From a virus (lineage: Duplodnaviria; Heunggongvirae; Uroviricota; Caudoviricetes), in IMG/VR virus record IMGVR_UViG_2585427745_000007: DNA of 19,135 nucleotides. One strand, given 5' to 3'. Within the stretch, counting starts at the first letter, position 1. Every line of letters begins with the position of its first letter. This document shows, in pieces, positions 1 to 16,465 of this stretch. The position numbers and the translations under genes were made by a program. The notes under the pieces were generated by a model. That model saw only the letters and a program-made list of their open reading frames with translations, ran no database searches and had not been told where the DNA came from.

Positions 1-311
1 CGGTCGAACTCCGCCTTCGCAAAATAAGCGGAAGCCTGGCGAAGGATATCGTTACTGCGGCGCAGTTCACGATTTTCACGCTCCAGCTCTTTCAGACGCT
101 GACGTTCAGCGGTGGTGAGCCCTCCATCACCGCCCCCGGTATCCCGCTCATGCTGGCGAACCCAGACACGCAGAGTCTCCGGCGTACAGCCAATCTTTGG
201 AGCAATGGAACAAATTGTCGCCCATTGTGAGTCATATTCGCCCTGACTTTCCAGAACCATACGGACTGCCCGTTGACGGACTTCAGGGGAAAAACGAGTA
301 TTTTTAGTCAT
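1..311 (-). CDS. IS3-family transposase OrfA (N-terminal 103 codons; 3' end and orfB outside window)
   Basis: ATG at 309-311 on the minus strand, preceded by AGAGG-like RBS (GAAAGAGGTAAACAGG ATG); open to the window edge; strong family-level match from memory. Confidence 0.85.
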
Positions 312-365
312 CCTGTTTACCTCTTTCTCAGGAAGTTTAGTCTCCAGGATTCCCGGGGCGGTTCA
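1..365 (-). mobile_element. IS3-family insertion sequence (IS629/IS1203-like), left end only; terminal inverted repeat ends at about 365 (minus-strand terminus TGAACCGCCCCGGGAATCC...), rest of element lies beyond window start
   Basis: Reverse complement of 1-311 translates to [104 protein letters not shown], recognised as an IS3-family OrfA (HTH plus leucine zipper). The TG...-type terminus sits 54 nt upstream of the OrfA ATG. The IS629 subgroup assignment is from memory and unverified. Confidence 0.8.
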
Positions 366-658
366 CAGGACTATATCCGCACTCAGTGCCTGAAATAGGT
401 TTTGCTGATGCGCGGTATTGTCGCCGTATCCCCGCATTAACAGAGACCGCAGCCCGACAGGGAGACTCCTCTGCGCGAGTGTGCGGGGATAATCAAAAAC
501 GACACACACCGGGGTTTACCGCGTTAACGGAGCGCGGCGTTGTCCCCTCATAGTCGCCTGTCCGGTGCGATGGTGGAAGAAGCCGGATGTTTATCACTAT
601 TAATTGATGACACAGAAATGGATTCATTGAATTTCAGCACGTTTTTGTATTCGTGTTA

Positions 659-688
659 TTGAACATCTGTTTATTTTACTTTTAACAT
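659..688 (+). promoter_or_regulatory. Candidate sigma70-like promoter (TTGAAC, 18-nt spacer, TAACAT) upstream of the small ORF at 749
   Basis: Hexamers read directly from the sequence in an AT-rich stretch; weak match, no experimental support. Confidence 0.2.
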
Positions 689-748
689 ATTGATAATAAA
701 AAGAGCTGTAAATCTTTAGATGAGTCGATTTTGTCCGGGGAAGTTCAA

Positions 749-889
749 ATGGATTTTATGCTGACGGTTTCTGGAGTGGTTATCCTGTCCATTGCTTATA
801 CTGCAGATAAATATGGCTGCCATTTGTTATCACGTATTGGCGCTTATTGTTCGTTGATGCTGATTTTCTCGTCGCTTTTTTTTGAGTAA
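749..889 (+). CDS. Hypothetical small hydrophobic protein, 46 aa (MDFMLTVSGVVILSIAYTADKYGCHLLSRIGAYCSLMLIFSSLFFE), two predicted hydrophobic helices
   Basis: ATG at 749 with GGGGAAG 5 nt upstream, TAA at 887-889. Lies in an AT-rich segment (about 600-1020) that has no counterpart in my recollection of the lambda right end. Below the 60-aa cutoff of the supplied ORF track. No recognised homolog. Confidence 0.3.
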   Translation: MDFMLTVSGVVILSIAYTADKYGCHLLSRIGAYCSLMLIFSSLFFE

Positions 890-1021
890 GTTATATTAAT
901 TATAACAAATAATTTTCTGTGTTATTTTTTCAGGCTATCCCGTCAGAGGGGAAGCCTGTACTGCCAGGGAGCGAATGGAAAACTGATGTGTCCGGTAACT
1001 GCGTGTTCTGTGAACACCATG

Positions 1022-1207
1022 TTACTTAATTATGTAATTCATACCCGAACTCTCTGTTGACAGCCTTCTTCTGCAGGCTTCAATAACCCACGCTGAAAAG
1101 TTTCCTGAACCTTTCAGATCAAGAGCGATGTTAATTTGTTCAATCATCTGGTTTGGAAATCGGATGTTGCGGGTTGTTGTTCTGCGGGTTCTGTTCTTTG
1201 ATGACAT
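1022..1207 (-). CDS. Small ribbon-helix-helix-like protein (61 aa), conserved at lambdoid right ends just upstream of cos; possibly DUF3950/YlcI-like
   Basis: ORF-track protein MSSKNRTRRTTTRNIRFPNQMIEQINIALDLKGSGNFSAWVIEACRRRL... has a basic N-terminus followed by a strand-helix-helix pattern. The same reading frame is present in my recollection of the lambda right-arm sequence just before cos. The family name is from memory, unverified. Confidence 0.5.
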   Translation of the reverse strand: MSSKNRTRRTTTRNIRFPNQMIEQINIALDLKGSGNFSAWVIEACRRRLSTESSGMNYIIK

Positions 1208-1594: not shown

Positions 1595-2143
1595 ATGAAC
1601 GTCAATAAGAAAAAACTGGCCGATATTTTTGGCGTTGATGTCAGGACCATCACCGCCTGGCAGAGTCAGGGGTTACCACTAGTTTCTGGTGGAGGGAAAG
1701 GGACTGAATCAGTTTTTGATACAACTGCTGCCATTCAGTGGTATGCGCAGAGGGAAGCTGATATTGAAAACGAAAAACTCCGTAAAGAGATCGAGGATTT
1801 GAGGGCTGCCAGCGAATCAGACCTTCAGCCCTGCACCATTGATTACGAACGTTACCGACTGACGAAGGCACAGGCCGATGCACAGGAGCTGAAAAATGCT
1901 CGTGAGGAAGGCCTTGTCCTCGAGACGGAGTTATTTACCTACATCTTTCAGCGAGTGGCACAGAATATATCAGGGATCCTTGTCCGTGTCCCTCAGACAC
2001 TGCAGCGTAAATACCCTGATATATCACCCGTACATCTTGATGCTGTGAAAACTGAAATCGCGAAAGCATCCGATGTGGCTTCTGAAGCCGGTGAGAATGT
2101 GCGCAGGTGGATTGATGATTTCAGACGAACTGAGGGCGGCTAA
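1595..2143 (+). CDS. nu1: Terminase small subunit Nu1
   Basis: 182 aa; [36 protein letters not shown]... closely parallels lambda Nu1 (MEVNKKQLADIFGASIRTIQNWQEQGMPVLRGGGKG...); lies immediately downstream of cos; RBS GGGGGA. Confidence 0.95.
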
Positions 2144-4043
2144 TTCTGCAGGAGCGATAGCAACCGGCCTCCTTGCGCTAAAAATTCCTGTCCCTCTGAC
2201 GACAGTTCAGTGGGCAGATCGACATTATTACCTTCCGAAAGAGTCATCTTACACCCCGGGGCGGTGGGAAACACTGCCGTTTCAGGTTGCCATCATGAAC
2301 AGCATGGGGAATGACCGGATCCGCACTGTTAATCTGATTAAATCTGCCCGTGTTGGTTATACAAAGATGTTGCTGGGAGTGGAGGCTTATTTTATTGAGC
2401 ATAAATCACGCAACAGCCTTCTTTTCCAGCCCACGGATTCTGCTGCTGAAGATTTTATGAAATCTCATGTGGAACCCACGATCAGGGATGTGCCGGTTTT
2501 ACTCGATCTTGCACCGTGGTTTGGGCGTAAACATCGTGATAATACCCTCACGCTGAAACGTTTTTCATCGGGCGTGGGCTTCTGGTGCCTGGGCGGGGCT
2601 GCCGCTAAAAACTACCGTGAAAAATCCGTGGACGTGGTCTGCTATGACGAACTTTCCTCGTTCGAACCGGATGTCGAAAAAGAGGGGTCGCCAACCCTGC
2701 TTGGGGATAAACGTATTGAGGGCTCTGTATGGCCCAAATCCATTCGCGGCTCGACGCCTAAAATCAAAGGCACCTGCCAGATCGAAAAAGCGGCCAACGA
2801 GTCGGCGCATTTCATGCGTTTTTATGTGCCCTGCCCACACTGTGGGGAGGAGCAGTATCTGAAATTTGGCGATGAATCCACGCCTTTTGGCCTTAAATGG
2901 GAGAAGGACAGCCCCGAAAGCGTTTTCTACCTCTGTGAACATCATGGCTGCGTGATCCATCAGTCTGAGCTTGACCAGAGCAACGGGCGGTGGATCTGTG
3001 AAAACACGGGGATGTGGACCCGTGACGGTCTGACGTTTTTCAGCGCCGCGGATAATGAAATTCCGCCGCCGCGCTCCATCACGTTCCATATCTGGACAGC
3101 GTACAGTCCGTTCACCACCTGGGTACAGATTGTCTATGACTGGCTGGATGCACTGAAAGATCCCAACGGCCTGAAAACCTTTGTGAACACCACGCTGGGC
3201 GAGACCTGGGAAGAGGCCGTGGGCGAAAAACTCGATCACCAGGTACTGATGGATAAGGTCGTGCATTACACGGCGGCGGTGCCAGCCCGGGTGGTTTATC
3301 TGACGGCGGGCATTGACTCGCAGCGAAACCGTTTTGAGATGTATGTCTGGGGATGGGCACCGGGAGAGGAAGCTTTTCTGGTGGATAAAATCATCATTAT
3401 GGGGCGTCCTGATGAGGAAGAGACGCTGTTACGTGTGGATGCGGCGATCAACAAAAAATACTGCCATGCAGATGGCACCGAAATGACCATTTCCCGTGTC
3501 TGCTGGGACACCGGGGGGATCGATGGTGAAATTGTCTATCAGAGGTCAAAAAAACACGGTGTTTTCCGGGTGCTGCCGGTAAAAGGTGCATCTGTTTATG
3601 GCAAGCCGGTGATCACCATGCCGAAAACCCGCAATCAGCGGGGCGTGTATCTGTGTGAAGTGGGGACGGACACCGCAAAAGAAATTCTCTATGCCCGTAT
3701 GAAAGCCGATCCCACTCCTGCGGATGAAGCCACGTCGTATGCCATCCGTTTTCCTGATGATCCGGAGATTTTTTCGCAGACAGAGGCGCAGCAACTGGTC
3801 GCGGAAGAGCTTGTGGAGAAGTGGGAAAAAGGAAAGATGCGTCTGCTGTGGGATAACAAAAAGCGGCGTAACGAAGCGCTGGACTGCCTGGTGTATGCCT
3901 ATGCGGCATTACGTGTGTCCGTGCAACGCTGGCAGCTTGATCTGGCTGTACTGGCAAAATCCCGGGAAGAAGAGACGACCCGGCCAACCCTTAAAGAACT
4001 GGCAGCGAAGCTGTCCGGAGGAGTGAATGGTTACAGTCGCTGA
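2115..4043 (+). CDS. A: Terminase large subunit A
   Basis: Lambda gpA-like throughout ([27 protein letters not shown]...). Start chosen at ATG 2115 (MISDEL...), overlapping the nu1 3' end by 29 nt as in lambda, rather than the ORF-track alternative start at 2073. Confidence 0.95.
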
Positions 4044-4233
4044 ACTGCAGGCGCTGCGTCAGGCGCGCCTTGATTTATTAACCGGTAAACGGGTGGTGTC
4101 TGTCCAGAAAGATGGTCGCAGAATTGAATATACGGAGGCTTCTCTGGATGAGCTTAACCGGGCGATCAATGATGCGGAGTCGGTACTGGGGACAACCCGA
4201 CGTCGCCGTCGTCCGCTGGGAGTGAGGTTATGA
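4027..4233 (+). CDS. W: Head-tail joining / head completion protein W
   Basis: 68 aa, gpW-like (LTGKRVVSVQKDGRRIEYTEASLDEL); overlaps the A stop and shares ATGA with the B start. Confidence 0.9.
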   Translation: MVTVAELQALRQARLDLLTGKRVVSVQKDGRRIEYTEASLDELNRAINDAESVLGTTRRRRRPLGVRL

Positions 4234-5822
4234 AACGAACGCCTGTCCTGATTGATGTGAACGGCGTTCCGCTTCGTGAGAGTCTCAGCTACAACGGGGG
4301 CGGCGCAGGATTTGGCGGGCAAATGGCGGAGTGGTTGCCACCGGCGCAGAGTGCCGATGCAGCCCTGCTGCCTGCGTTGCGTCTGGGGAATGCCCGGGCA
4401 GATGATCTGGTGCGCAATAACGGGATAGCGGCTAATGCGGTGGCCCTGCATAAGGATCATATTGTCGGGCATATGTTTCTGATCAGCTACCGTCCGAACT
4501 GGCGCTGGCTGGGGATGCGGGAGACTGCGGCAAAAAGTTTTGTCGATGAGGTGGAGGCGGCCTGGTCGGAATACGCCGAAGGGATGTTTGGCGAGATCGA
4601 CGTGGAAGGGAAACGCACGTTTACGGAATTTATCCGTGAAGGTGTGGGCGTTCATGCGTTTAACGGCGAAATCTTTGTGCAGCCGGTCTGGGATACGGAG
4701 AGCACGCAACTGTTTCGTACGCGTTTTAAAGCCGTGAGTCCGAAACGGGTGGACACGCCAGGACACGGTATGGGGAACCGTTTTCTGCGGGCCGGTGTGG
4801 AGGTCGATCGATATGGTCGTGCCGTTGCGTACCATATCTGTGAGGATGATTTTCCTCGCTCCGGGAGTGGACGATGGGAACGGATCCCGCGTGAACTTCC
4901 CACCGGGCGTCCGGCCATGCTGCATATTTTCGAGCCGGTGGAGGACGGGCAGACCCGTGGGGCCAATCAGTTTTACAGCGTAATGGAACGGCTGAAGATG
5001 CTCGATTCCCTGCAGGCAACACAGCTTCAGTCGGCCATAGTGAAGGCGATGTATGCAGCGACGATTGAAAGTGAACTTGATACCGAAAAGGCCTTTGAAT
5101 ATATCGCCGGTGCGCCGCAGGGGCAGAAGGATAATCCGCTTATTAATATTCTGGAGAAGTTCTCCACCTGGTATGACACGAATAGCGTGACGCTGGGCGG
5201 TGTCAAAATTCCGCACCTTTTCCCCGGTGATGATCTGAAACTTCAGACCGCGCAGGATTCAGACAATGGATTTTCGGCGCTTGAACAGGCGCTGCTGCGG
5301 TATATCGCCGCCGGTCTTGGCGTTTCCTACGAACAGTTGTCCCGTGATTACTCGAAGGTCAGTTATTCAAGTGCCCGCGCATCCGCCAATGAGTCGTGGC
5401 GCTATTTTATGGGGCGGCGAAAATTTATTGCGTCCCGGCTGGCCACGCAGATGTTTTCCTGCTGGCTGGAAGAGGCACTTCTTCGGGGGATTATTCGTCC
5501 GCCACGGGCGCGTTTTGATTTTTATCAGGCGCGATCAGCCTGGTCACGGGCTGAGTGGATTGGAGCCGGAAGAATGGCCATTGACGGGCTCAAGGAGGTT
5601 CAGGAATCAGTGATGCGCATTGAGGCCGGACTGAGCACGTATGAGAAAGAGCTGGCGCTGATGGGCGAGGATTATCAGGACATTTTCCGCCAGCAGGTCA
5701 GGGAATCTGCAGAGCGGGAAAAAGCCGGACTCTCACGTCCGGTGTGGATAGCGCAGGCGTATCAGCAGCAGATAGCGGAGAGTCGCAGGCCGGAAGAGGA
5801 GACAACACCACGTGAGACGTAA
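4230..5822 (+). CDS. B: Portal protein B
   Basis: 530 aa; extensive lambda gpB similarity (LPALRLGNARADDLVRNNG..., ...AMLHIFEPVEDGQTRGANQFYSVMERLKMLD...). Confidence 0.95.
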   Translation: MKRTPVLIDVNGVPLRESLSYNGGGAGFGGQMAEWLPPAQSADAALLPALRLGNARADDLVRNNGIAANAVALHKDHIVGHMFLISYRPNWRWLGMRETAAKSFVDEVEAAWSEYAEGMFGEIDVEGKRTFTEFIREGVGVHAFNGEIFVQPVWDTESTQLFRTRFKAVSPKRVDTPGHGMGNRFLRAGVEVDRYGRAVAYHICEDDFPRSGSGRWERIPRELPTGRPAMLHIFEPVEDGQTRGANQFYSVMERLKMLDSLQATQLQSAIVKAMYAATIESELDTEKAFEYIAGAPQGQKDNPLINILEKFSTWYDTNSVTLGGVKIPHLFPGDDLKLQTAQDSDNGFSALEQALLRYIAAGLGVSYEQLSRDYSKVSYSSARASANESWRYFMGRRKFIASRLATQMFSCWLEEALLRGIIRPPRARFDFYQARSAWSRAEWIGAGRMAIDGLKEVQESVMRIEAGLSTYEKELALMGEDYQDIFRQQVRESAEREKAGLSRPVWIAQAYQQQIAESRRPEEETTPRET

Positions 5823-5878
5823 TCTTTCACACATTATTGCCGCAGCATTCAATGAACCGCTGCTTCTGGAGCCCGCCT

Positions 5879-7318
5879 ATGCGCGGGTTTTCTTTTGCGC
5901 GCTCGGGCGCGAGATGGGGGCAGCACGTCTTTCAGTTTACGCTTACGCAGGTACAGCTTGATGCTCCCGGAATGCTGGCTGAAACGGACGAGTACATGGC
6001 CGGAGGTAAACGACCGGCCCGTGTTTACCGGGTGGTGAACGGTATTGCTGTACTGCCGGTGACCGGCACGCTGGTGCACCGGCTGGGCGGTATGCGGCCA
6101 TTTTCCGGAATGACAGGCTATGACGGCATTGTCGCCTGTCTTCAGCAGGCAATGGCAGATAGCCAGGTGCGGGGCGTACTGCTGGACATTGACAGTCCGG
6201 GCGGGCAGGCCGCCGGCGCGTTTGACTGCGCTGACATGATTTACCGCCTCCGGCAGCAGAAGCCGGTCTGGGCACTGTGTAATGACACGGCCTGTTCTGC
6301 AGCCATGCTGCTGGCGTCGGCCTGCTCCCGACGGCTGGTTACCCAGACATCCCGTATCGGCTCCATTGGCGTGATGATGAGCCATGTCAGCTATGCCGGT
6401 CATCTGGCGCAGGCCGGGGTGGATATCACGCTGATTTATGCCGGGGCGCACAAGGTGGATGGCAATCAGTTTGAAGCCTTACCGGCAGAGGTGCGTCAGG
6501 ACATGCAGCAGCGGGTTGATGCGGCGCACCGGATGTTTGCCGAAAAAGTGGCGATGTATACGGGGCTGTCTGTGGAAGCTGTCACGGGGACAGAGGCTGC
6601 CGTTTTTGAAGGTCAGTCCGCTATTAAGGCCGGACTGGCGGATGAATTAATCAATGCGTCGGATGCCATCAGCGTGATGGCTGCGGCGCTGAACACTCAT
6701 GATACAGGAGGCACTATGCCGCAATTAACTGCAACGGAAGCTGCCGTGCAGGAGAACCAGCGAGTGATGGGGATCCTGACATGCCAGGAAGCGAAAGGAC
6801 GTGAACAGCTTGCCACGATGCTGGCAGGGCAACAGGGCATGAGCGTTGAACAGGCCCGGGCGATTCTGGCCGCGGCGGCACCACAGCAGCCGGTGGCATC
6901 CGCGCAGAGTGAAGCCGATCGCATTATGGCGTGTGAAGAAGCGAAAGGTCGTGAACAACTGGCGGCAACGCTGGCGGCGATGCCGGAGATGACGGTGGAA
7001 AAAGCCCGCCCGATCCTGGCTGCCTCACCGCAGGCGAATGCCGGGCCCTCACTTCGTGATCAGATCATGGCCCTGGATGAGGCAAAAGGGGCAGAAGCGC
7101 AGGCTGAAAAACTGGCGGCCTGCCCGGGAATGACCGTGGAGAACGCCCGGGCTGTGCTGGCTGCGGGATCAGGTAAGGCCGAACCGGTCTCTGCATCCAC
7201 AACCGCCTTGTTTGAACATTTCATGGCGAATCATTCACCGGCAGCGGTGCGGGGTGGCGTGTCACAGACGTCAGAAGACGGTGATGCGGACGTGAAAATG
7301 CTCATGGCCATGCCATGA
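5879..7318 (+). CDS. C: Prohead protease C (S49/ClpP-like peptidase) with C-terminal scaffold domain. The N-terminal about 30 codons homologous to lambda gpC are encoded in a different frame (5812-5961), so the gene carries an apparent +1 frameshift and may be a pseudogene or sequencing error
   Basis: Main body (frame of 5837-7318) matches lambda gpC (VVNGIAVLPVTGTLV, SGMTGYDGI, VWALCNDTACSAAMLLASACSRRLVTQTSRIGSIGVMMSHV). A short ORF from GTG 5812 (overlapping the B stop) encodes RRNLSHIIAAAFNEPLLLEPAYARVFFCAL, matching the lambda gpC N-terminus, then stops at 5959-5961. Confidence 0.8.
   Translation: MRGFSFARSGARWGQHVFQFTLTQVQLDAPGMLAETDEYMAGGKRPARVYRVVNGIAVLPVTGTLVHRLGGMRPFSGMTGYDGIVACLQQAMADSQVRGVLLDIDSPGGQAAGAFDCADMIYRLRQQKPVWALCNDTACSAAMLLASACSRRLVTQTSRIGSIGVMMSHVSYAGHLAQAGVDITLIYAGAHKVDGNQFEALPAEVRQDMQQRVDAAHRMFAEKVAMYTGLSVEAVTGTEAAVFEGQSAIKAGLADELINASDAISVMAAALNTHDTGGTMPQLTATEAAVQENQRVMGILTCQEAKGREQLATMLAGQQGMSVEQARAILAAAAPQQPVASAQSEADRIMACEEAKGREQLAATLAAMPEMTVEKARPILAASPQANAGPSLRDQIMALDEAKGAEAQAEKLAACPGMTVENARAVLAAGSGKAEPVSASTTALFEHFMANHSPAAVRGGVSQTSEDGDADVKMLMAMP
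6503..7318 (+). CDS. nu3: Scaffolding protein Nu3, nested in-frame in the 3' part of C (internal start uncertain: ATG at 6503, 6533 or 6716)
   Basis: Lambda Nu3 is translated from an internal in-frame start within C. The candidate ATG at 6716 has an AGGAGG-like RBS (CAGGAGG, 4-nt spacing). The C-terminal region contains three tandem EAKGREQLA...MTVE.AR.ILAA repeats. Confidence 0.4.
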   Translation: MQQRVDAAHRMFAEKVAMYTGLSVEAVTGTEAAVFEGQSAIKAGLADELINASDAISVMAAALNTHDTGGTMPQLTATEAAVQENQRVMGILTCQEAKGREQLATMLAGQQGMSVEQARAILAAAAPQQPVASAQSEADRIMACEEAKGREQLAATLAAMPEMTVEKARPILAASPQANAGPSLRDQIMALDEAKGAEAQAEKLAACPGMTVENARAVLAAGSGKAEPVSASTTALFEHFMANHSPAAVRGGVSQTSEDGDADVKMLMAMP

Positions 7319-7354
7319 AGTCAGTGCTGAACATCAATACGAGGTTTTAACAAT

Positions 7355-7702
7355 ATGGTGACGAAAACCATCACTGAACAGCGTGCGGAAGTACGTATTT
7401 TTGCCGGTAATGATCCGGCTCACACCGCCACAGGCAGCAGCGGGATTTCCTCGGCAACACCGGCACTGACGCCCCTGATGCTGGATGAAGCCACCGGGAA
7501 ACTGGTGGTCTGGGATGGACAGAAAGCCGGTAGTGCGGTTGGCATACTGGTACTGCCGCTTGAAGGCACAGAGACGGTGCTGACCTATTACAAGTCGGGG
7601 ACCTTTGCGACGGAGGCAATCCGCTGGCCTGAAAGTGTGGATGAACACAAAAAGGCAAATGCCTTTGCCGGCACAGCCCTGAGTCACGCGGCTCTGCCGT
7701 AA
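7355..7702 (+). CDS. D: Head decoration protein D
   Basis: 115 aa; DPAHTATG...TPLMLDEATGKLVVWDG...YKSGTF...AFAGTA parallels lambda gpD. Confidence 0.93.
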   Translation: MVTKTITEQRAEVRIFAGNDPAHTATGSSGISSATPALTPLMLDEATGKLVVWDGQKAGSAVGILVLPLEGTETVLTYYKSGTFATEAIRWPESVDEHKKANAFAGTALSHAALP

Positions 7703-7710
7703 CACGTTAT

Positions 7711-7740
7711 CAGGCCACCGCGTTGGCCTGACTGATTTCT
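7711..7740 (+). terminator. Stem-loop (CAGGCC...GGCCTG) followed by a T-rich tract in the D-E intergenic region; possible partial terminator or RNA-stability element
   Basis: 6-7 bp GC-rich inverted repeat at 7711-7730, then ACTGATTTCTT. Confidence 0.25.
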
Positions 7741-7759
7741 TAATGAAAGGAACTGATTT

Positions 7760-8788
7760 ATGGGATTGTTTACGACCCGCCAGTTACTCGGTTATACCGA
7801 ACAAAAAGTTAAATTCCGTGCGCTGTTTCTGGAGCTGTTTTTCCGCCGTACGGTGAATTTCCACACCGAAGAGGTGATGCTGGACAAAATTACCGGAAAA
7901 ACGCCGGTGGCGGCCTATGTCTCCCCGATCGTTGAAGGAAAAGTGCTTCGCCATCGCGGTGGTGAAACCCGCGTGTTACGTCCGGGCTACGTCAAGCCCA
8001 AACACGAATTTAATTACCAGCAGGCGGTTGAGCGCCTTCCTGGTGAAGATCCGGCTCAGCTGAACGACCCGGCCTACCGTCGTCTGCGTATCATTACCGA
8101 TAACCTCAAACAGGAAGAGCACGCCATTGTCCAGGTGGAAGAAATGCAGGCGGTGAATGCCGTGCTGTATGGCAAATACACCATGGAAGGGGATCAGTTT
8201 GATACTGTCGAGGTGGATTTCGGGCGCTCTGAAGGAAATAACATTGAGCAGGCTGACGGTAAAAAATGGTCTGAGCAGGACCGTGATACGTTTGATCCGA
8301 CGCATGATATTGACCTCTACTGCGATCAGGCCAGCGGCCTTGTGAATATCGCCATTATGGACGGTACGGTCTGGCGTCTGCTGAATGGCTTTAAGCTGTT
8401 CCGCGAAAAACTGGATACCCGTCGCGGCTCAAATTCACAACTCGAAACGGCAGTGAAAGACCTGGGGGCGGTGGTGTCCTTCAAGGGGTATTACGGCGAT
8501 CTGGCCATTGTGGTGGCGAAAACGTCTTATGTGGCAGAGGACGGTACCGAAAAACGTTATCTGCCGGAGGGCATGCTGGTGCTGGGGAATACGGCGGCAG
8601 AGGGGATTCGTTGCTATGGTGCCATTCAGGATGCACAGGCGTTGTCCGAAGGTGTGGTGGCTTCTTCCCGTTACCCGAAACACTGGCTGACCGTGGGCGA
8701 TCCGTCCTGTGAATTCACCATGACGCAGTCCGCTCCGCTGATGGTGCTGCCGGATCCGGATGAGTTTGTGGTGGTACAGGTGAAATAA
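7760..8788 (+). CDS. E: Major capsid protein E
   Basis: 342 aa; strong lambda gpE similarity (YVSPIV.G.V.R.RGG, PGYVKPKHE, DPAYRRLRII, LDTRRGSNS.LETAVKDLG); RBS AAGGAA upstream of ATG 7760. Confidence 0.95.
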   Translation: MGLFTTRQLLGYTEQKVKFRALFLELFFRRTVNFHTEEVMLDKITGKTPVAAYVSPIVEGKVLRHRGGETRVLRPGYVKPKHEFNYQQAVERLPGEDPAQLNDPAYRRLRIITDNLKQEEHAIVQVEEMQAVNAVLYGKYTMEGDQFDTVEVDFGRSEGNNIEQADGKKWSEQDRDTFDPTHDIDLYCDQASGLVNIAIMDGTVWRLLNGFKLFREKLDTRRGSNSQLETAVKDLGAVVSFKGYYGDLAIVVAKTSYVAEDGTEKRYLPEGMLVLGNTAAEGIRCYGAIQDAQALSEGVVASSRYPKHWLTVGDPSCEFTMTQSAPLMVLPDPDEFVVVQVK

Positions 8789-8796
8789 TCCGTGAG

Positions 8797-8826
8797 CGGG
8801 GGCGAAATGCCCCCGTGTCTTTTTTC
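8797..8826 (+). terminator. GC-rich hairpin (CGGGGGC GAAAT GCCCCCG) followed by TGTCTTTTTTC, between E and FI; intrinsic-terminator-like or attenuator
   Basis: 7-bp perfect GC stem with 5-nt loop and a downstream T-run, read directly from the sequence; the FI RBS (AGGAGG) lies immediately after it. Confidence 0.4.
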
Positions 8827-8839
8827 ACAGGAGGCTGAG

Positions 8840-9223
8840 ATGGCAACAAAAGAAGAAAATCTGAATCGTCTTCGTCAACTGGCTGGCCTGCTGGGGCGCG
8901 AGGCGGATATGTCGGGGAGTGCTGCGGATATTGCTCAACGTGTGTCTGAGTGGGAAGAGGAGCTTGCTGTTTCCCCGGAGGGCATTATGCACTCTGATGA
9001 GAGCGGGGCTGATCAAAATCACACAGACGATGGTGAGCAGTTGAACAACACGGATGCTCCGGATGATGTTAAAGCCGTCCGGGTACGGAAGTGCCTGCAA
9101 GTAATGGGGTATTGCCCGGAGACAGGCCGTCCCGTTGAACTGACGTACCGGGGTATGCGTGTTCTGGTGCCATCATCACTGGCAACGGCCATGATACAGC
9201 ACGGAACGGCTGAATATGCGTGA
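8840..9223 (+). CDS. FI: DNA packaging protein FI
   Basis: Position between E and FII, with an acidic central region as in lambda gpFI. Start chosen at ATG 8840 with AGGAGG RBS rather than the ORF-track GTG at 8792. Confidence 0.85.
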   Translation: MATKEENLNRLRQLAGLLGREADMSGSAADIAQRVSEWEEELAVSPEGIMHSDESGADQNHTDDGEQLNNTDAPDDVKAVRVRKCLQVMGYCPETGRPVELTYRGMRVLVPSSLATAMIQHGTAEYA

Positions 9224-9569
9224 TTTTCAGAATGCCTTTGATGCTGCCCTCGCCGGGGTGGACAGTACGATCGTTGAAGTGATGGGGATCCGTGCGCAGT
9301 TCACCTCGGGGGCACAGTGTGGCGGCGAAGTTCAGGGGGTTTTTGACGATCCGGAGTCGCTGGGTTTTGCCGGTGGCGGGGTCCGTATTGAAGGAAGCAG
9401 CCCGTCATTATTTGTGCGGACGGATACGGTGCGTGCCGTGCGGCGTGGTGACACGCTGACCATTAACGGCGAGATGTTCTGGGTGGATCGTGTTTCTCCG
9501 GATGACGGGGGAAGCTGTTATCTCTGGCTCAACCGTGGGCAACCACCCGCTGTTAACCGGCGACGATAA
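9216..9569 (+). CDS. FII: Head-tail connector protein FII
   Basis: 117 aa; C-terminus FWVDRVSPDDGGSCYLWLNRGQPPAVNRRR is nearly identical to lambda gpFII. Confidence 0.95.
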   Translation: MRDFQNAFDAALAGVDSTIVEVMGIRAQFTSGAQCGGEVQGVFDDPESLGFAGGGVRIEGSSPSLFVRTDTVRAVRRGDTLTINGEMFWVDRVSPDDGGSCYLWLNRGQPPAVNRRR

Positions 9570-9584
9570 ACGCAGGGTGAAATT

Positions 9585-10118
9585 ATGGCGATAAAAGGGC
9601 TTGATCAGGCGATTGATAATCTGAGCCGGGTTCGTAAAAACGCCATTCCGGCGGCTTCAGCAATGGCCATTAACCGCGTGGCCACAACGGCGATTAATCA
9701 GTCTTCATCACAGGTTGCCCGGGAGACAAAGGTTCGCCGGAAACTGGTTAAGGAACGGTCCAGACTGAAACGGGCGACGGTCAGAAATCCGAATGCCAGA
9801 ATTATCGTTAACCGCGGTGATCTCCCTGTGATTAAGCTGGGGATCAGGATGCTGGGGCGTCGCCCGAACAGCATACTTAAAGCCGGTCAGCATCGGTATC
9901 AGCGGGCATTTATTCAGCGATTAAAAAATGGTCGCTGGCATGTCATGCAGCGTGTGGCCGGGAAAAACCGTTACCCCATTGATGTGGTGAAAATCCCGAT
10001 GGCGGCCCCACTGAAACAGGCATTTGATGAGAATGTTGACCGTATCCGGCGTGAACGCCTGCCTAAAGAACTGGCATACGCGCTGAAACAACAACTGAGG
10101 ATTGCGATAAAACGATGA
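9585..10118 (+). CDS. Z: Minor tail protein Z (tail completion)
   Basis: 177 aa; MAIKGLDQAIDNLSRV...VARETKVRRKLVKERSRLKRATV...NGRWHVMQRVAGKNRYPIDVVKIPMA is gpZ-like. Confidence 0.93.
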   Translation: MAIKGLDQAIDNLSRVRKNAIPAASAMAINRVATTAINQSSSQVARETKVRRKLVKERSRLKRATVRNPNARIIVNRGDLPVIKLGIRMLGRRPNSILKAGQHRYQRAFIQRLKNGRWHVMQRVAGKNRYPIDVVKIPMAAPLKQAFDENVDRIRRERLPKELAYALKQQLRIAIKR

Positions 10119-10510
10119 AACACACTGACATTCGTGCCGCAGTGCTGGATGCACTCGAGCAGCATGAACACGGGGCGACGCTGTTTGATGGTCGCCCCGT
10201 TGTTTTTGACGAAGAGGATTTTCCTGCGATCGCGGTTTATCTGACGGATGCAGAGTATACCGGTGAAGAGCTGGATGCAGATACCTGGCGGGCCACACTG
10301 CATATTGAGGTGTTTTTACCGGCACAGGTACCGGATTCAGAGCTCGATCAGTGGATGGAAAGCCGGATTTACCCGGCGATGACCGCGATCCCGGCACTGG
10401 CAGGACTGATTACCACGATGGTTACGCAGGGCTATGAGTATCGTCGTGATGACGATATGGCGTTATGGAGTTCTGCAGATCTGACTTATTCCATTACATA
10501 CGAGATGTGA
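10115..10510 (+). CDS. U: Tail terminator protein U
   Basis: 131 aa; [28 protein letters not shown]...LTYSITYEM is gpU-like; ATGA overlap with the Z stop. Confidence 0.95.
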
Positions 10511-10517
10511 GGACGAT

Positions 10518-11264
10518 ATGGCAACACCAAATCCCCTTGAGCCGGTAAAAGGTGCCGGTACCACTCTGTGGGTTTACAACGGCAAGGGTGATGCTTATGC
10601 AAACCCGTTGTCAGACGATGACTGGCAGCGACTGGCTAAGGTGAAGGATCTGACGCCGGGCGAGATGACGGCAGAATCCTACGATGATAACTACCTGGAT
10701 GATGAAGACGCGGACTGGACCGCGACCGGGCAGGGACAGAAATCTGCAGGTGATACCAGTTTTACGCTGGCCTGGAAACCGGGAGAGGAAGGCCAGAAAG
10801 GGCTTATAGGCTGGTTTGAAAGCGGCGATGTCCGGGCCTATAAAATCCGTTTTCCGAATGGCACGGTGGATGTGTTTCGTGGCTGGGTCAGCAGTATCGG
10901 TAAGGCCGTGACGGCGAAAGAAGTGATCACCCGCACGGTGAAAGTCACTAACGTGGGTAAACCTTCTGTAGCGGAAGAACGCAGCAAAATTACGCCGGTC
11001 ACTGCGATTAAGGTAACGCCGACAGGTACGGTTGAAAAAGGGAAAACAACCACCCTGACCGTTACTGTGGAACCGGAAAATGCAACGGATAAGACATTCA
11101 GGGCGATTTCCGCCGATCCATCAAAAGCCACCATTAGCGTGAAAGATATGACGATTACTGTGACGGGGGTTAAGGATGGAAAAGTCAGCATCCCTGTGAT
11201 TTCCGGTAATGGTCAGTTTGCTGCGGTGGCTGAAATTACCGTTAATAATGTGCCGGGTGGCTAA
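10518..11264 (+). CDS. V: Major tail (tube) protein V with C-terminal Ig-like (Big_2-type) domain
   Basis: 248 aa; [37 protein letters not shown]...[38 protein letters not shown] is gpV-like. Confidence 0.95.
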
Positions 11265-11282
11265 AGAGCTGAGAGATAAGCG

Positions 11283-11714
11283 ATGTTCCTGAAAACAGAA
11301 CAATTTGAATATAACGGTGTATCCGTCACGCTTTCTGAGCTGTCTGCGCTGCAGCGTATTGAGCATCTTGCCCTCCTGAAACGGCGGGCAGAAGAGGCTG
11401 AAGCCAGCGGCAACCTGCAGGTGAGTGTGGAAGATCTTGTCAGAACCGGCGCGTTTCTGGTGGCGATGTCCCTGTGGCATAACCATCCACAGAAAACGCA
11501 GTCACCGTCAATGAATGAGGCCGTGATGAAGATAGAGCAGGAAGTGCTCACCACCTGGCCTGCAGATGCCATTGCCCGGGCGGAAGACGTGGTGTTGTGC
11601 CTGTCCGGGATGATCGAAGCTGTTCGTCCGGATACTGATATTACTGAAGTGGCGAAAAATAACACGCTGACTGATGATGATTTTTCTGCGGGAAAGTCTT
11701 CGACGGCGAGCTGA
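11283..11714 (+). CDS. G: Tail assembly chaperone G
   Basis: 143 aa; MFLKTEQFEYNGVSVTLSELSALQRIEHLALLKRRAEEAEAS... is gpG-like. Confidence 0.93.
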   Translation: MFLKTEQFEYNGVSVTLSELSALQRIEHLALLKRRAEEAEASGNLQVSVEDLVRTGAFLVAMSLWHNHPQKTQSPSMNEAVMKIEQEVLTTWPADAIARAEDVVLCLSGMIEAVRPDTDITEVAKNNTLTDDDFSAGKSSTAS

Positions 11715-12154
11715 ACTTTGCCCTCAGACTGGCGCGTGAGATGGGGAGACCCGACTGGCGCGCCATGCTTGCCGGGATGACATCCACCGAATATGCCGAC
11801 TGGCACCGTTTTTACCGCACGCATTATTTTCAGGATACCCAGCTGGATATGCATTTTTCCGGGCTGACGTACGCTGTACTCAGCCTGTTTTTTTGCGATC
11901 CGGATATGCATCCCTCTGATTTCAGTCTGCTTGTCCCCCGGCATGAGGAAGAGCAGGTGGAGAGGCCGGATGAGGACAAAATGCTGATGCAGAAAGCGGC
12001 AGGACTTGCCGGAGGCGTCCGGTTCGGTGGGGACGGAGGGCGCGATATTTTATCGTCTGCGGATGTGGCGGATGTCATGGTGGATGATGCCGCATTAATG
12101 ATGGCTTCAGCGGGGATTCCGGGAGGTGTGAGATATGTCCCAGCCGGTTGGTGA
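11283..12154 (+). CDS. T: Tail assembly protein G-T fusion, made by programmed -1 ribosomal frameshift at the slippery heptamer G_GGA_AAG (11690-11696)
   Basis: Slippery heptamer GGGAAAG lies 18 nt before the G stop; the -1 frame continues open to 12154, and the shifted reading (...GRPDWRAMLAGMTSTEYADWHRFY...) is gpT-like. Confidence 0.85.
11690..11696 (+). promoter_or_regulatory. Programmed -1 ribosomal frameshift slippery site (G GGA AAG) for the G to G-T switch
   Basis: Canonical X_XXY_YYZ heptamer in the G reading frame, identical to the lambda G-T site. Confidence 0.85.
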
Positions 12155-14687
12155 TCTTGTTATTGACCTTAGTCTGGATGCTGTCCGTTTCGATGAGCAG
12201 ATGAGCCGGGTAAGGCGTCATTTTTCAGGTCTGGATACCGACGCCAGAAAAACCGCCAGTGCTGTTGAACAGGGCCTGAGCCGCCAGGCGCTGGCTGCAC
12301 AAAAAGCCGGGATTTCCGTCGGGCAGTATAAAGCGGCCATGCGAACCCTGCCCGCACAGTTTACGGATATCGCCACGCAGCTTGCCGGTGGTCAGAATCC
12401 CTGGCTCATCCTGCTGCAACAGGGCGGTCAGGTGAAGGACTCCTTCGGCGGGATGATCCCCATGTTCAGGGGGCTTGCCGGTGCGATCACCCTGCCGATG
12501 GTCGGGGTCACCTCGCTGGCGGTGGCGACAGGTGCGCTGGTGTACGCCTGGTACCAGGGAGATTCCACGCTTTCAGCGTTTAATAAAACCCTGGTTCTTT
12601 CCGGTAATCAGTCCGGACTGACTGCCGATCGTATGCTGACTCTCTCAAGAGCCGGGCAGGCAGCAGGGCTGACGTTTAACCAGGCGAGAGAGTCACTGGC
12701 AGCCCTGGTGAATGCCGGTGTGCGTGGTGGTGAACAGTTTGATGCCATCAACCAGAGTGTCGCGCGTTTTGCGTCTGCATCCGGTGTGGAGGTGGATAAA
12801 GTCGCTGAAGCCTTCGGGAAGCTGACCACTGACCCGACGTCGGGACTGATGGCGATGGCGCGCCAGTTCCGTAACGTGACGGCAGAGCAGATTGCGTATG
12901 TTGCACAGCTGCAGCGTTCCGGAGACGAGGCCGGGGCATTGCAGGCGGCGAACGATATCGCCACGAAAGGCTTTGATGAGCAGACCCGTCGCCTGAAAGA
13001 AAACATGGGAACACTGGAGACCTGGGCGGATAAAACAGGGAAGGCATTCAAATCGATGTGGGATGCCATTCTGGATATCGGTCGTCCTGAATCCTCAGCG
13101 GATATGCTCGCCAGTGCGCAGAAGGCATTTGATGAGGCGGATAAAAAATGGCAGTGGTACCAGAGCCGGAGCCAGCGCCGGGGAAAGACCTCCTCTTTTC
13201 GTGCGAACCTTCAGGGGGCATGGGATGACCGGGAAAATGCCCGTCTGGGTCTGGCAGCGGCCACGCTGCAGTCGGATATGGAAAAAGCCGGTGAACTGGC
13301 GGCAAGGGACCGGGCTGAGCGTGAGGCGTCACAGCTGAAGTATACCGGAGAGGCGCAGAAGGCGTATGAGCGCCTGCAGACGCCGCTGGATAAATATACC
13401 GCCCGTCAGAAAGAGCTGAATAAGGCCCTGAAAGACGGAAAAATCCTGCAGGCGGATTACAACACGCTGATGGCGTCGGCAAAAAAGGATTATGAATCGA
13501 CGCTGAAAAAGCCGTCAGGTGTGAAGGTGTCTGCCGGTGAGCGCCAGGAAGACCGGGCGCATGCAGCCATGCTGGCGCTTGAAACCGAGCTCAGGACGCT
13601 GGAAAAACACAGCGGTGTGAATGAGAAAATCAGCCAGCAGCGCCGGGATTTATGGGAAGCGGAAAATCAGTATGTGGTCCTGAAAGAGGCCGCCACGAAA
13701 CGGCAGTTATCTGAGCAGGAAAAATCCCTGCTGGCCCATGAGAAAGAAACGCTGGAGTACAAACGCCAGCTGGCTGAGCTGGGCGACAAGATAGAACACC
13801 AGAAGCGGCTGAATGAGCTGGCACAGCAGGCGGCGCGGTTTGAGCAGCAGCAGAGCGCAAAAGCCCGCGGCCTCACTGACCGTCAGGCGCAGCGGGAGTC
13901 GGAAGAGCAGCGCCTTCGTGAGGTGTACGGTGATAATCCGGCTGCGCTGGCGAAGGCCACATCGGCACTGAAGAACACCTGGTCTGCGGAGGAGCAGCTT
14001 CGTGGAAGCTGGATGGCCGGGATGAAGTCCGGCTGGGGCGAGTGGGCGGAAAGTGCGACGGACAGTTTTTCGCAGGTTAAAAACGCGGCCACGCAGACCT
14101 TTGACGGTATTGCACAGAATATGGCGGCGATGCTGACCGGCAGTGAGCAGAACTGGCGTGGTTTCACCCGTTCCGTGCTCTCCATGCTGACAGAGATTTT
14201 TCTGAAGCAGGCAATGGTGGGGATTGTCGGAAGTATCGGCAGCGCCATTGGCGGGGCTGTTGGTGGTGGCGCATCCGCGTCAGGCGGTACAGCCATTCAG
14301 GCAGCTGCGGCGAAATTCCATTTTGCGACCGGAGGATTTACGGGAACCGGCGGCAAATATGAACCTGCGGGGATTGTTCATCGCGGGGAGTTTGTCTTCA
14401 CGAAGGAGGCGACCAGCCGGATTGGTGTCGGCAATCTGTACCGCCTGATGCGGGGCTATGCGGAAGGTGGTTATGTCGGCGGTGCCGGAAGTCCGGCGCA
14501 GATGCGGCGGGCGGAAGGCATTAATTTTAATCAGAACAATCACGTGGTGATTCAGAACGACGGCCCCAACGGGCGGGCAGGGCCGCAGCTGATGAAAGCG
14601 GTGTATGAGATGGCCCGCAAGGGGGCACAGGATGAACTCCGGCTGCAGTTGCGTGATGGCGGTATGTTATCAGGGAGCGGTGGATGA
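12135..14687 (+). CDS. H: Tail tape measure protein H
   Basis: 850 aa; collinear similarity to lambda gpH (MSQPVGDLVIDLSLDAVRFDEQMSRVRRHFSG... and the C-terminal GGFTGTGGKYEPAGIVHRGEFVFTKEATSRIG); GGGAGG RBS upstream. Confidence 0.95.
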   Translation: MSQPVGDLVIDLSLDAVRFDEQMSRVRRHFSGLDTDARKTASAVEQGLSRQALAAQKAGISVGQYKAAMRTLPAQFTDIATQLAGGQNPWLILLQQGGQVKDSFGGMIPMFRGLAGAITLPMVGVTSLAVATGALVYAWYQGDSTLSAFNKTLVLSGNQSGLTADRMLTLSRAGQAAGLTFNQARESLAALVNAGVRGGEQFDAINQSVARFASASGVEVDKVAEAFGKLTTDPTSGLMAMARQFRNVTAEQIAYVAQLQRSGDEAGALQAANDIATKGFDEQTRRLKENMGTLETWADKTGKAFKSMWDAILDIGRPESSADMLASAQKAFDEADKKWQWYQSRSQRRGKTSSFRANLQGAWDDRENARLGLAAATLQSDMEKAGELAARDRAEREASQLKYTGEAQKAYERLQTPLDKYTARQKELNKALKDGKILQADYNTLMASAKKDYESTLKKPSGVKVSAGERQEDRAHAAMLALETELRTLEKHSGVNEKISQQRRDLWEAENQYVVLKEAATKRQLSEQEKSLLAHEKETLEYKRQLAELGDKIEHQKRLNELAQQAARFEQQQSAKARGLTDRQAQRESEEQRLREVYGDNPAALAKATSALKNTWSAEEQLRGSWMAGMKSGWGEWAESATDSFSQVKNAATQTFDGIAQNMAAMLTGSEQNWRGFTRSVLSMLTEIFLKQAMVGIVGSIGSAIGGAVGGGASASGGTAIQAAAAKFHFATGGFTGTGGKYEPAGIVHRGEFVFTKEATSRIGVGNLYRLMRGYAEGGYVGGAGSPAQMRRAEGINFNQNNHVVIQNDGPNGRAGPQLMKAVYEMARKGAQDELRLQLRDGGMLSGSGG

Positions 14688-15013
14688 AAACCTTTCGCTG
14701 GAAAGTGAAGCCGGATATGGAGGTGAACTCGCAGCCATCGGTGCGTGAAGTGCGTTTTGGTTACGGGTACTCACAGCGTATGGCGGCAGGGCTGAATGCT
14801 GACCTGAAAACATACAGGGTGACGCTTTCCGTGACCCGGGAGGAGGCCCGGCATCTGGAAGCGTTCCTGGCAGAGCACGGTGGCTGGAAGGCATTTTTGT
14901 GGAAGCCACCCTATGCATACCGGCAGATAAAGGTGACCTGTGCCGGGTGGTCTGCGCGGGTCGGGATGTTGCGCGTTGAGTTCAGCGCGGAGTTTAAGCA
15001 GGTGGTGAACTGA
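14684..15013 (+). CDS. M: Minor tail protein M
   Basis: 109 aa; MKTFRWKVKP...LKTYRVTLSV...HGGWKAFLWKPPY..RQIKVTCAGWSARVGMLRVEFSAEFKQVVN is gpM-like; ATGA overlap with H. Confidence 0.95.
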   Translation: MKTFRWKVKPDMEVNSQPSVREVRFGYGYSQRMAAGLNADLKTYRVTLSVTREEARHLEAFLAEHGGWKAFLWKPPYAYRQIKVTCAGWSARVGMLRVEFSAEFKQVVN

Positions 15014-15711
15014 TGCAGGATATTCGCGAAGAAAGTCTGAACGAGTCGGTTAAGTCAGAGCAGTCACCGCGGGTGGTACTCTGGGAAATCGACCTGACGG
15101 TGCAGGGCGGTGAGCGGTATTTTTTCTGCAATGAGCTGAATGAAAAAGGGGAGCCGGTGACCTGGCAGGGGCGTGAATATCAGGCGTACCCGATTGAGGG
15201 GAGTGGCTTTGAGATGAACGGGAAGGGCAGCAGTGCCAGACCATCGCTGACGGTGTCCAATCTGTTTGGTCTGGTCACCGGGATGGCGGAAGACCTGCAG
15301 AGTCTGGTGGGGGCCACGGTGGTCCGCCGCCGGGTGTATGCCCGTTTTCTGGATGCGGTGAATTTCGTTGCGGGCAATCCGGAGGCGGACCCGGAGCAGG
15401 AGCTGAGTGACCGCTGGGTGGTGGAGCAGATGTCGCAGCTGACAGCCATGACGGCCTCGTTTGTGCTGGCTACACCGACCGAGACGGACGGGGCGCTGTT
15501 TCCCGGTCGCATCATGCTGGCGAACACCTGTATGTGGGATTACCGGGGAGATGAATGCGGGTATAACGGTCCTGCGGTGGCGGATGAGTTCGACAACCCC
15601 ACCACGGATATCCGTAAGGACAGATGCAGCAAGTGCATGCGCGGGTGTGAACTGCGCAGGAATGTCGGCAATTTTGGCGGTTTCCTTTCCATTAATAAAC
15701 TTTCGCAGTAA
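15013..15711 (+). CDS. L: Minor tail protein L
   Basis: 232 aa; VVLWEIDLT..GGERYFFCNE.NEKGEPVTWQGREYQ and the C-terminal Cys cluster (CSKCMRGC...NVGNFGGFLSINKLSQ) are gpL-like. Confidence 0.95.
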   Translation: MQDIREESLNESVKSEQSPRVVLWEIDLTVQGGERYFFCNELNEKGEPVTWQGREYQAYPIEGSGFEMNGKGSSARPSLTVSNLFGLVTGMAEDLQSLVGATVVRRRVYARFLDAVNFVAGNPEADPEQELSDRWVVEQMSQLTAMTASFVLATPTETDGALFPGRIMLANTCMWDYRGDECGYNGPAVADEFDNPTTDIRKDRCSKCMRGCELRRNVGNFGGFLSINKLSQ

Positions 15712-15721
15712 ATCCCGGTTT

Positions 15722-16465
15722 ATGACACAGACTGAATCAGCGATTCTGGCGCATGCCCGGCGGTGTGCGCCTGCGGAGTCGTGCGGCTTCGTGATAAGCA
15801 CGCCGGAGGGGGAGTGGTATATCCCTTGTGTGAATATTTCTGCAGAGCCGGAGGCGTATTTTCGTATCGCACCGGAAGACTGGCTGCGGGCAGAGATGCA
15901 GGGGGAGATTGTGGCACTGGTCCACAGTCATCCCGGTGGGCTGCCCTGGCTGAGCGAGGCTGACCGGCGGCTGCAGATAAAAAGCGCACTGCCCTGGTGG
16001 CTGGTCTGCCGGGGTGACATTCACAAATTCCGCTGTGTGCCACATCTGACAGGACGGCGCTTTGAGCACGGGGTGACGGACTGTTACACGCTGTTCCGGG
16101 ATGCTTATCATCTGGCGGGGACTGAGATGCCGGATTTTCATCGCGAGGATGACTGGTGGCGCAACGGTCAGAACCTTTACCTGGACAATATGGCGGTCAC
16201 CGGCTTTTACCGGGTGCCCCTGTCCTCTGCACAGGCGGGCGATATTCTGCTGTGCTGCTTTGGTGCTTCGGTACCGAACCATGCCGCCATTTACTGCGGC
16301 AACGGTGAGCTGCTTCACCATCTGCCTGAACAACTGAGTAAACGGGAGAGGTATTCCGAAAAATGGCAACGACGAACGCATTCAGTCTGGCGTCACCGCC
16401 ACTGGCACGCATCTGCCTTCACGGGGATTTACAACGATTTGGCCGCCGCCTCAGCCTGTATGTGA
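15722..16465 (+). CDS. K: Tail assembly protein K (N-terminal JAMM/MPN+ metalloprotease-like motif, C-terminal NlpC/P60-like domain)
   Basis: MTQTESAILAHARRCAPAESCGF... with HSHPGGLPWLSEAD (HxHx7SxxD) and a Cys/His pair (DCYTLF, NHAAIY). Start taken at ATG 15722 rather than the ORF-track upstream extension into L; overlaps I by 103 nt. Confidence 0.88.
   Translation: MTQTESAILAHARRCAPAESCGFVISTPEGEWYIPCVNISAEPEAYFRIAPEDWLRAEMQGEIVALVHSHPGGLPWLSEADRRLQIKSALPWWLVCRGDIHKFRCVPHLTGRRFEHGVTDCYTLFRDAYHLAGTEMPDFHREDDWWRNGQNLYLDNMAVTGFYRVPLSSAQAGDILLCCFGASVPNHAAIYCGNGELLHHLPEQLSKRERYSEKWQRRTHSVWRHRHWHASAFTGIYNDLAAASACM

Follow-up and report, generated by a model that had tools for sequence, protein, structure and literature searches.

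The window, by which we mean the whole 19,135-nucleotide stretch of DNA analysed here, comes from IMG/VR virus record IMGVR_UViG_2585427745_000007 (Caudoviricetes). Between the end of an Rz spanin gene and the cos site it carries a variable AT-rich cassette (589-1072), a moron-like insert that is delimited by homology breakpoints and GC content and is not assigned to a strand. Inside the cassette, on the plus strand, lies a 46-amino-acid (aa) open reading frame (ORF), hereafter ORF46 (749-889), which is marked out by its annotation (ECs1538 / WP_000347013.1), its conservation and published RNA-seq and RIBOseq, and whose product, MDFMLTVSGVVILSIAYTADKYGCHLLSRIGAYCSLMLIFSSLFFE, is a predicted two-helix inner-membrane protein. 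An earlier reading of the sequence alone (the original prediction) had placed a small ORF at these coordinates, with this product and with an RBS-like (ribosome-binding-site-like) GGGGAAG ahead of it, and all of this was borne out. We propose, as a probable though by no means certain reading, that the cassette is a real moron, and that its small membrane protein is expressed in the lysogen.

The variable block measures 484 bp when its limits are set by homology breakpoints against related phages. Homology to lambda, Lambda_ev087, BP-4795 and Stx2c_2409 ends at about 587-594 and restarts at 1073, so that the left border falls between the conserved sequence just 3' of Rz and the insert, and the right border in the conserved 5' part of a ynfO-like gene. 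The flanks are lambda-like, as the original prediction had it: window 426-524 matches lambda 46885-46981 (79%) and window 1073-1413 matches lambda 48169-48502 (87%), the latter reaching cos, and comparison of the cassette with lambda gave no match between the two flanks. In Lambda_ev087 the same flanks are only 56 bp apart, compared with 478-484 bp in the window; BP-4795 and the Stx2c phage hold 266 bp of unrelated sequence in the slot, and lambda about 1.19 kb. The insert without a lambda counterpart that the original prediction described is therefore missing or replaced in four related phages, yet the span of 600-1020 given to it was slightly too narrow. The 266-bp alternative filler of BP-4795 was checked for an analogous hydrophobic peptide and encodes none.

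The claimed AT-richness was likewise confirmed by comparing the cassette with its flanking genes: 36% GC at 589-1072 versus 58% in the left flank (366-588) and 56% in the structural genes (1595-17043). Within the cassette the region 5' of the ORF (589-748) has 29% GC and ORF46 itself (749-889) 39%, and the right flank up to cos is also low, at 40%. No single packaging module goes with the cassette; at least three different ones are linked to it, namely Nu1/gpA in the window and in strain 118UI, an HNH endonuclease with terminase in O157:H7 TW14359 and in Sakai prophage Sp6, and another TerS/TerL pair without ynfO in two contigs (L090 and L091), where homology stops at 997. On these sequence comparisons the best explanation for 589-1072 is a mobile accessory cassette in a recombination hot spot, with the lysis genes on one side and ynfO/cos/terminase on the other. 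Lambda fills the same slot between Rz and cos with other accessory ORFs (bor, lambdap78 and lambdap79), but the contents are unrelated, bor being a minus-strand lipoprotein gene and ORF46 a plus-strand gene for a two-helix peptide. To specialists ORF46 is no surprise: it is an ordinary prophage accessory gene in a well-known hot spot of lambdoid mosaicism.

The original prediction implied that the ORF had been overlooked. It is indeed absent from an ORF track with a 60-aa limit, but it has been publicly annotated since the Sakai genome: the protein is RefSeq WP_000347013.1, a 'hypothetical protein', and an identical protein is encoded in Sakai prophage Sp6 (ECs_1538, NP_309565.1). Annotated since 2001, ORF46 is otherwise unstudied. 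Every database name for the protein is 'hypothetical', the literature yielded no main-text mention of WP_000347013 or ECs1538, the supplements of Tree et al. 2014 hold nothing for ECs1537-1539, and the peptide is absent from the 'Cryptic bacterial microproteome' tables. A preprint on the Pas small RNA, taken up as a possible source on the cassette, was set aside as it concerns another region.

A 481-nt region of the cassette is present in 734 of the 5426 complete E. coli genomes, with one to three copies each, and the carriers include O157:H7, O55:H7, O26, O145, O121, O104:H4 and some human urinary and other clinical isolates. Queries with the peptide and with the conserved upstream block gave no match in one representative genome per species of 185,579 species. 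Only two records of the GenBank phage collection have the cassette, and it is common in IMG/VR and in gut and food metagenome contigs. Three of 797 copies in E. coli genomes sit on plasmid-typed records, e.g. NZ_OZ392475.1 (216,715 bp), which could be phage-plasmids or assembly artefacts. At the protein level the peptide had no match in Pfam, PHROGs, NCBIfam or PADLOC at E values up to 10; in a word-indexed search of 5.8 billion proteins the matches were E. coli copies and frameshift variants alone, and a HMMER search of 1.84 billion representatives gave only its own cluster, fragments of that cluster and a few long repetitive proteins that we took as spurious. Homology searches of the kind envisaged in the original prediction hence recovered the E. 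coli copies but no family, and no relatives beyond the protein's own cluster.

Evidence on the reading frame comes from 150 fetched loci that represent three cassette lineages: the main lineage, a second with 89% nucleotide identity to it (loci L089, L090, L091 and L149) and a third with 74-76% (L003 and L150). All three keep a frame of 45-46 codons in which start and stop fall at identical positions and no indel occurs, so that neither stops nor frameshifts, which had been named as signs of a spurious frame, are seen in these diverged relatives. In contrast, the region directly downstream (916-1065) is 54-60% identical and has several indels. Comparison of the main with the most distant lineage by the Nei-Gojobori method gave a dN/dS of 0.26-0.28 in the annotated frame versus 0.5-0.9 in the other two, and the excess of synonymous changes in the ORF46 frame has a P value of 0.006-0.008. 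When the changes were placed at random, hydrophobicity as high as that observed was found in only 0.65% of the placements (P = 0.0065). The replacements in the helices are conservative (V/I, S/A, I/V, M/I) and residues 26-45 are nearly invariant. A survey of single-nucleotide polymorphisms in 136 full copies of the main lineage showed that all those found within ORF46 in at least 20 copies are synonymous, and that GTG, which still initiates, replaces ATG in 7 copies. These comparisons argue with moderate strength for purifying selection on the ORF46 protein.

The length of a T8 run at 875-882, in the last codons of ORF46, varies, with one or more extra T's in some copies. The variants alter the last residues only, which read ...LFFE or ...LFF or are extended by a few residues, e.g. 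...LFFFLSKLY, and the run is a possible slippage-prone site.

The two-helix hydrophobic peptide of the original prediction is upheld by hydropathy, by structure prediction and by a published listing. The 46-aa protein has a grand average of hydropathy (GRAVY) of 1.1 and two hydrophobic segments, residues 3-17 and 26/30-45, with a mean Kyte-Doolittle hydropathy of about 2. The loop TADKYGCH lies between them; basic residues are limited to K21 and R29, and both ends carry acidic residues. AlphaFold2 places helices at 2-22 and 24-44 with a break at G23 (mean predicted local distance difference test score, pLDDT, of 72), and Hücker et al. list the Sakai protein as 'inner membrane, 2 TMH' (two transmembrane helices; S9, PMC5597208). 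By the positive-inside rule the loop would face the cytoplasm in the modelled topology. A Foldseek search of viral structures with the AlphaFold2 model gave no match.

Expression of the gene can be read from the strand-specific RNA-seq and RIBOseq of uninduced Sakai by Hücker et al. 2017 (PMC5597208), in which ECs1538 is one of 250 short annotated control genes. In lysogeny broth (LB) it reached 57.6 reads per kilobase per million mapped reads (RPKM) in RNA and 26.1 RPKM in RIBOseq, with a ribosome coverage value (RCV) of 0.46 and a coverage of 0.98; in brain heart infusion (BHI) the RNA was 32.7 RPKM, RIBOseq 7.3, RCV 0.23 and coverage 0.81; and in BHI with 4% NaCl at 14 °C the RNA fell to 2.1 and RIBOseq to 0.6 RPKM, with RCV 0.29 and coverage 0.13 (S2 Table, PMC5597208). 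The upstream same-strand genes gave much less RNA in LB: 8.4 RPKM for holin S (ECs1530), 10.1 for ECs1536 and 3.0 for ECs1537 (PMC5597208). From these values ECs1538 RNA is 6-19 times that of the upstream late genes. The plus-strand ORF ECs1537 ends at window 607, and the step in RNA from ECs1537 to ECs1538 thus suggests that transcription starts between 607 and 749 in the lysogen. Together with a conserved block in this interval, the expression data support a promoter somewhere in 607-749. With the frame conservation and the dN/dS of about 0.27, the published RNA-seq and RIBOseq signals in a lysogen also indicate that the small ORF of the original prediction behaves as a true gene would.

The conserved block is a non-coding sequence 5' of ORF46 (668-703, not assigned to a strand), which was delimited in the lineage alignment and has one substitution in each of two lineages, against an identity of 74-89% in the cassette around it. 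Wherever the upstream region occurs ORF46 is present too, both queries hitting the same 734 genomes at 787 places. Its conservation makes a core promoter or operator at 668-703 probable. The original prediction proposed a promoter here, and its hexamers are located as given: TTGAAC at 659-664 and TAACAT at 683-688 on the plus strand, with an 18-nt spacing (candidate sigma-70 promoter, 659-688), although they match at only 8 of 12 positions and so stay below threshold. GATAAT at 692-697 is an alternative -10. The BPROM score listed for the ECs1538 promoter is strong (LDF 8.00; PMC5597208), and the promoter-region sequence of the cassette is absent from the transcription start site tables of EDL933. 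On the minus strand a promoter-like site, TTTACA-17 nt-TATGTT (684-712), lies inside the conserved block and points toward Rz; with 9 matches of 12 it outscores the plus-strand hexamers.

The Shine-Dalgarno-like GGGGAAG (737-743, plus strand) stands 5 nt ahead of the ATG and has the counterparts GGGGAAT, GGGGAAC and GGGTTAC in other lineages; the published table lists a Shine-Dalgarno sequence 4 nt upstream of ECs1538 with a deltaG of -3.6 (PMC5597208). After the stop codon follows the AT palindrome GTTATATTAATTATAAC (890-906, no strand). It is present as the original prediction had it, but is not a conserved element: it is lost through a 10-nt deletion in the L089/L149 lineage and broken in L003/L150. 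We considered it as a functional terminator and rejected this. Our scan predicted no intrinsic terminator after ORF46 and none is listed for ECs1538 (S4 Table, PMC5597208). Moreover, the published RNA of the downstream ORFs XECs147 and XECs148 (window ~893-1054; XECs148 is on the plus strand) stays at 38-50 RPKM with an RCV of 0.37-0.52 (PMC5597208), so that the transcript continues through the palindrome, which is therefore not an efficient terminator.

Based on these data we suggest the following course of events. The cargo of the cassette is a single small gene (749-889) for a protein of two hydrophobic helices (about 3-17 and 26-45) linked by a short basic loop (K21, R29). In the repressed prophage, low-level transcription would come from a sigma-70 promoter in the conserved block, at about 659-705; since ORF46 has the orientation of the late operon, late transcription would read it as well. 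The protein may then form a helical hairpin in the inner membrane, its loop on the cytoplasmic side, where it would target another membrane component instead of working as an enzyme. Plausible roles are a block to DNA entry by superinfecting phages, as for HK97 gp15, or modulation of a host membrane protein. For the role our best guess is superinfection exclusion or the modulation of a membrane protein, but it is drawn by analogy and we hold it only tentatively.

The moron definition (Juhala et al. 2000) and the HK97 gp15 precedent (Cumby et al. 2012) are both reviewed in PMC3594210, where gp15 is described as a small inner-membrane superinfection exclusion protein that is encoded by a late-region insert of deviating GC content and expressed from the repressed prophage. 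Like gp15, ORF46 is an AT-rich insert encoding a small predicted membrane protein with an RNA signal in the lysogen. Unlike gp15, which is of the YebO family, ORF46 has no Pfam match at E up to 10, and neither Pfam nor the HMMER search of 1.84 billion representatives placed it in the YebO/gp15 family; gp15 lies in the tail operon and ORF46 between Rz and cos, and the gp15 moron has its own terminator, whereas none is detectable for ORF46. By analogy gp15 appears to be the closest functional precedent, without sequence relationship. Taken strictly as a moron, the cassette is extra DNA between genes that are adjacent in relatives (Lambda_ev087, BP-4795 and the Stx2c phage) and has a deviating composition (36% GC); it probably has its own promoter, and a terminator was not found.

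Other small membrane proteins offer a looser parallel. MgrB, AcrZ and MgtS are chromosomally encoded single-helix inner-membrane proteins with known partners, each binding a larger membrane protein. ORF46 is similar to them in size and predicted membrane location, but it is prophage-borne, has two helices and shows no homology to them.

Several observations weigh against a functional moron. The evolutionary evidence consists of only three lineages and about 25 substitutions, and 25 randomly placed changes leave the ORF46 frame open about 50% of the time. Homologues are confined to E. coli, and neither a family nor a structure match points to a role. With cores of 15-16 residues, the hydrophobic segments are also short. 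At the promoter the best plus-strand hexamers (8 of 12) lie below the scan threshold of 9 of 12, and the overall yield of the promoter scan was no better than in shuffled sequence; at the other end no terminator closes the transcription unit. The published reads are few, 7 vs 1 counts (S7 Table, PMC5597208). Footprints do cover 98% of ORF46, as a Ribo-seq check of the gene would require, yet the ratio is similar in the non-conserved downstream region: the RCV of XECs147 and XECs148 is about that of ORF46, hence the RIBOseq signal is not frame-specific.

The alternative best served by these points is that ORF46 has no protein function and is a chance frame in a young AT-rich recombination spacer or in a regulatory or RNA element, its footprints being background on a pervasive transcript. 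The confinement of the family to E. coli without distant homologues, the equal RCV and low read counts just described and the simulated frames that stay open by chance all fit it. It would also account for the conservation among genomes by recent spread, as in 733 of the 734 carriers the copies are at least 95% identical. We nevertheless regard it as unlikely, since the synonymous excess is confined to the annotated frame, the helix replacements are conservative and hydrophobicity is kept, indels accumulate right after ORF46 and none inside, and every lineage has ATG or GTG as its start codon and the stop in the same position.

Somewhat less likely still is the idea that ORF46 is a type I toxin-like peptide, as raised in the original prediction, or another one that depolarises or permeabilises the inner membrane. 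Such a peptide would serve addiction, abortive infection or persistence, and an RNA or inefficient translation would keep it silent. In its small size, strong hydrophobicity and prophage location ORF46 resembles the type I toxins (Hok, Ldr, Ibs, ShoB, TisB, DinQ and ZorO), which are small hydrophobic peptides often found on mobile elements; its RCV in LB (0.46) is also under the mean of 1.55 for short annotated genes (PMC5597208). However, the idea fails the sequence-based tests for an antisense RNA, a structured mRNA and family membership. Neither a promoter-like nor a terminator-like site was found on the minus strand overlapping or following ORF46, and the sole nearby site (712 to 684) points away. 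A repeat, inverted or direct, that would hint at an antisense partner acting in trans was not found either, and Rfam on 1-2500 gave only a fragment of the insertion sequence (IS) pseudoknot and a chance match to a long non-coding RNA. The mRNA fold of 696-960 is no better than that of shuffled sequence (z = -1.27), and no toxin family of Pfam, NCBIfam, PHROGs or PADLOC matched at E up to 10. To our knowledge the known type I toxins are single-helix peptides, whereas ORF46 has two helices. The convergent ynfO-like gene is not an obligate partner, and we rejected a two-gene module of ynfO and ORF46, as each gene occurs without the other.

Least likely in our view is a late-expressed lysis accessory, the last gene of the lysis cassette, that tunes holin or spanin (antiholin-like, lysis timing): ORF46 lies directly 3' of S-R-Rz in the same orientation, all contexts examined share the class II holin, lysozyme and Rz type, and the product is a two-helix membrane protein, but BP-4795, the Stx2c phage and Lambda_ev087 have the same Rz end without ORF46, which makes it dispensable for lysis, its uninduced RNA, 6-19 times that of holin and other late genes, points to independent expression in the lysogen, no holin family of Pfam or PHROGs matched, and the C-terminus (...SSLFFE) has no basic tail, while holins carry a charged cytoplasmic C-terminal tail.

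If the small membrane protein moron that we favour is functional, it would be a further case of a small membrane protein expressed by a prophage in its lysogen, and one that many Shiga-toxin-producing lineages carry, with roughly one in seven complete E. coli genomes having a copy. It is conceivable, although we are inclined to doubt it, that ORF46 founds a new E. coli-restricted family of two-helix lysogen peptides that block phage entry, cause abortive membrane depolarisation or rewire a host sensor or transporter. Were that so, pathogenic E. coli would have in it a widespread lysogenic-conversion factor that has gone unrecognised, as about 13.5% of complete E. coli genomes carry it, most sampled O157:H7, O26, O145, O121 and O104:H4 strains among them. 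Being short, cheap to test and accompanied by hints of expression, ORF46 would reasonably be included in a small-protein or phage-defence screen, and the interest in it would grow given a defence or host-modulating phenotype.

Among the neighbouring features, positions 1-365 (minus strand) are the end of an IS3-family element, consisting of the terminal repeat and the start of orfA, which we take to be IS629-like. The translation of 311-3 (minus strand) matches HTH_Tnp_1 (5.5e-13), the ALIL frameshift pseudoknot of Rfam has a partial match at 1-30 (minus strand), and homology with intact prophages begins at 364-366. What follows is a remnant of the Rz spanin gene, its last 10 codons and stop (366-398, plus strand), as judged by comparison with strain 118UI: the 'lysis protein' coding sequence of that strain ends at the equivalent of window 398, and window 366 sits 33 nt before that end, so that the IS insertion cuts Rz 33 nt ahead of its stop. 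The IS truncates the spanin gene and lies between the late promoter on one side and cos with the structural genes on the other. Lysis or late expression is probably defective in this copy of the prophage. Since the cassette is separated from the late promoter in the same way, in this window ORF46 could be expressed only from a promoter of its own. The same IS end is found elsewhere in three IMG/VR contigs (L076, L078 and L079), between the window equivalents of 1313 and 1331, a short way left of cos, and in these copies the ORF46 start has the ATG-to-GTG change as well.

To the right, and convergent with ORF46, lies a YlcI/YnfO-family (DUF3950) gene (1022-1207, minus strand), identified by Pfam PF13132 (9e-19), NCBIfam NF041551 and PHROG 949. 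The homology breakpoint at 1072 falls inside this ynfO-like gene, and its last 17 codons, hence the C-terminal 17 residues of its product, belong to the cassette. The gene is mosaic, and the BP-4795 version has a different, longer C-terminus (75 aa). The protein also has a weak PHROG match to HicB-like antitoxins (E = 0.012), and we suspect a DNA-binding fold of the ribbon-helix-helix type. Further on, cos lies near 1413, and Nu1 and gpA start from 1595.

A 36-aa ORF at 919-1029 (plus strand) corresponds to XECs148, which Hücker et al. reported as a translated 'novel gene' of Sakai (1561141-1561245, old coordinates; PMC5597208). In the other cassette lineages its frame is disrupted by indels and nucleotide identity is only 54-60%, and the segment is probably the 3' untranslated region of the ORF46 transcript rather than a gene. 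Finally, positions 665-712 resemble 1469-1516, just right of cos on the cosB side, with 71% identity over 48 nt, which is probably a chance match between AT-rich stretches.

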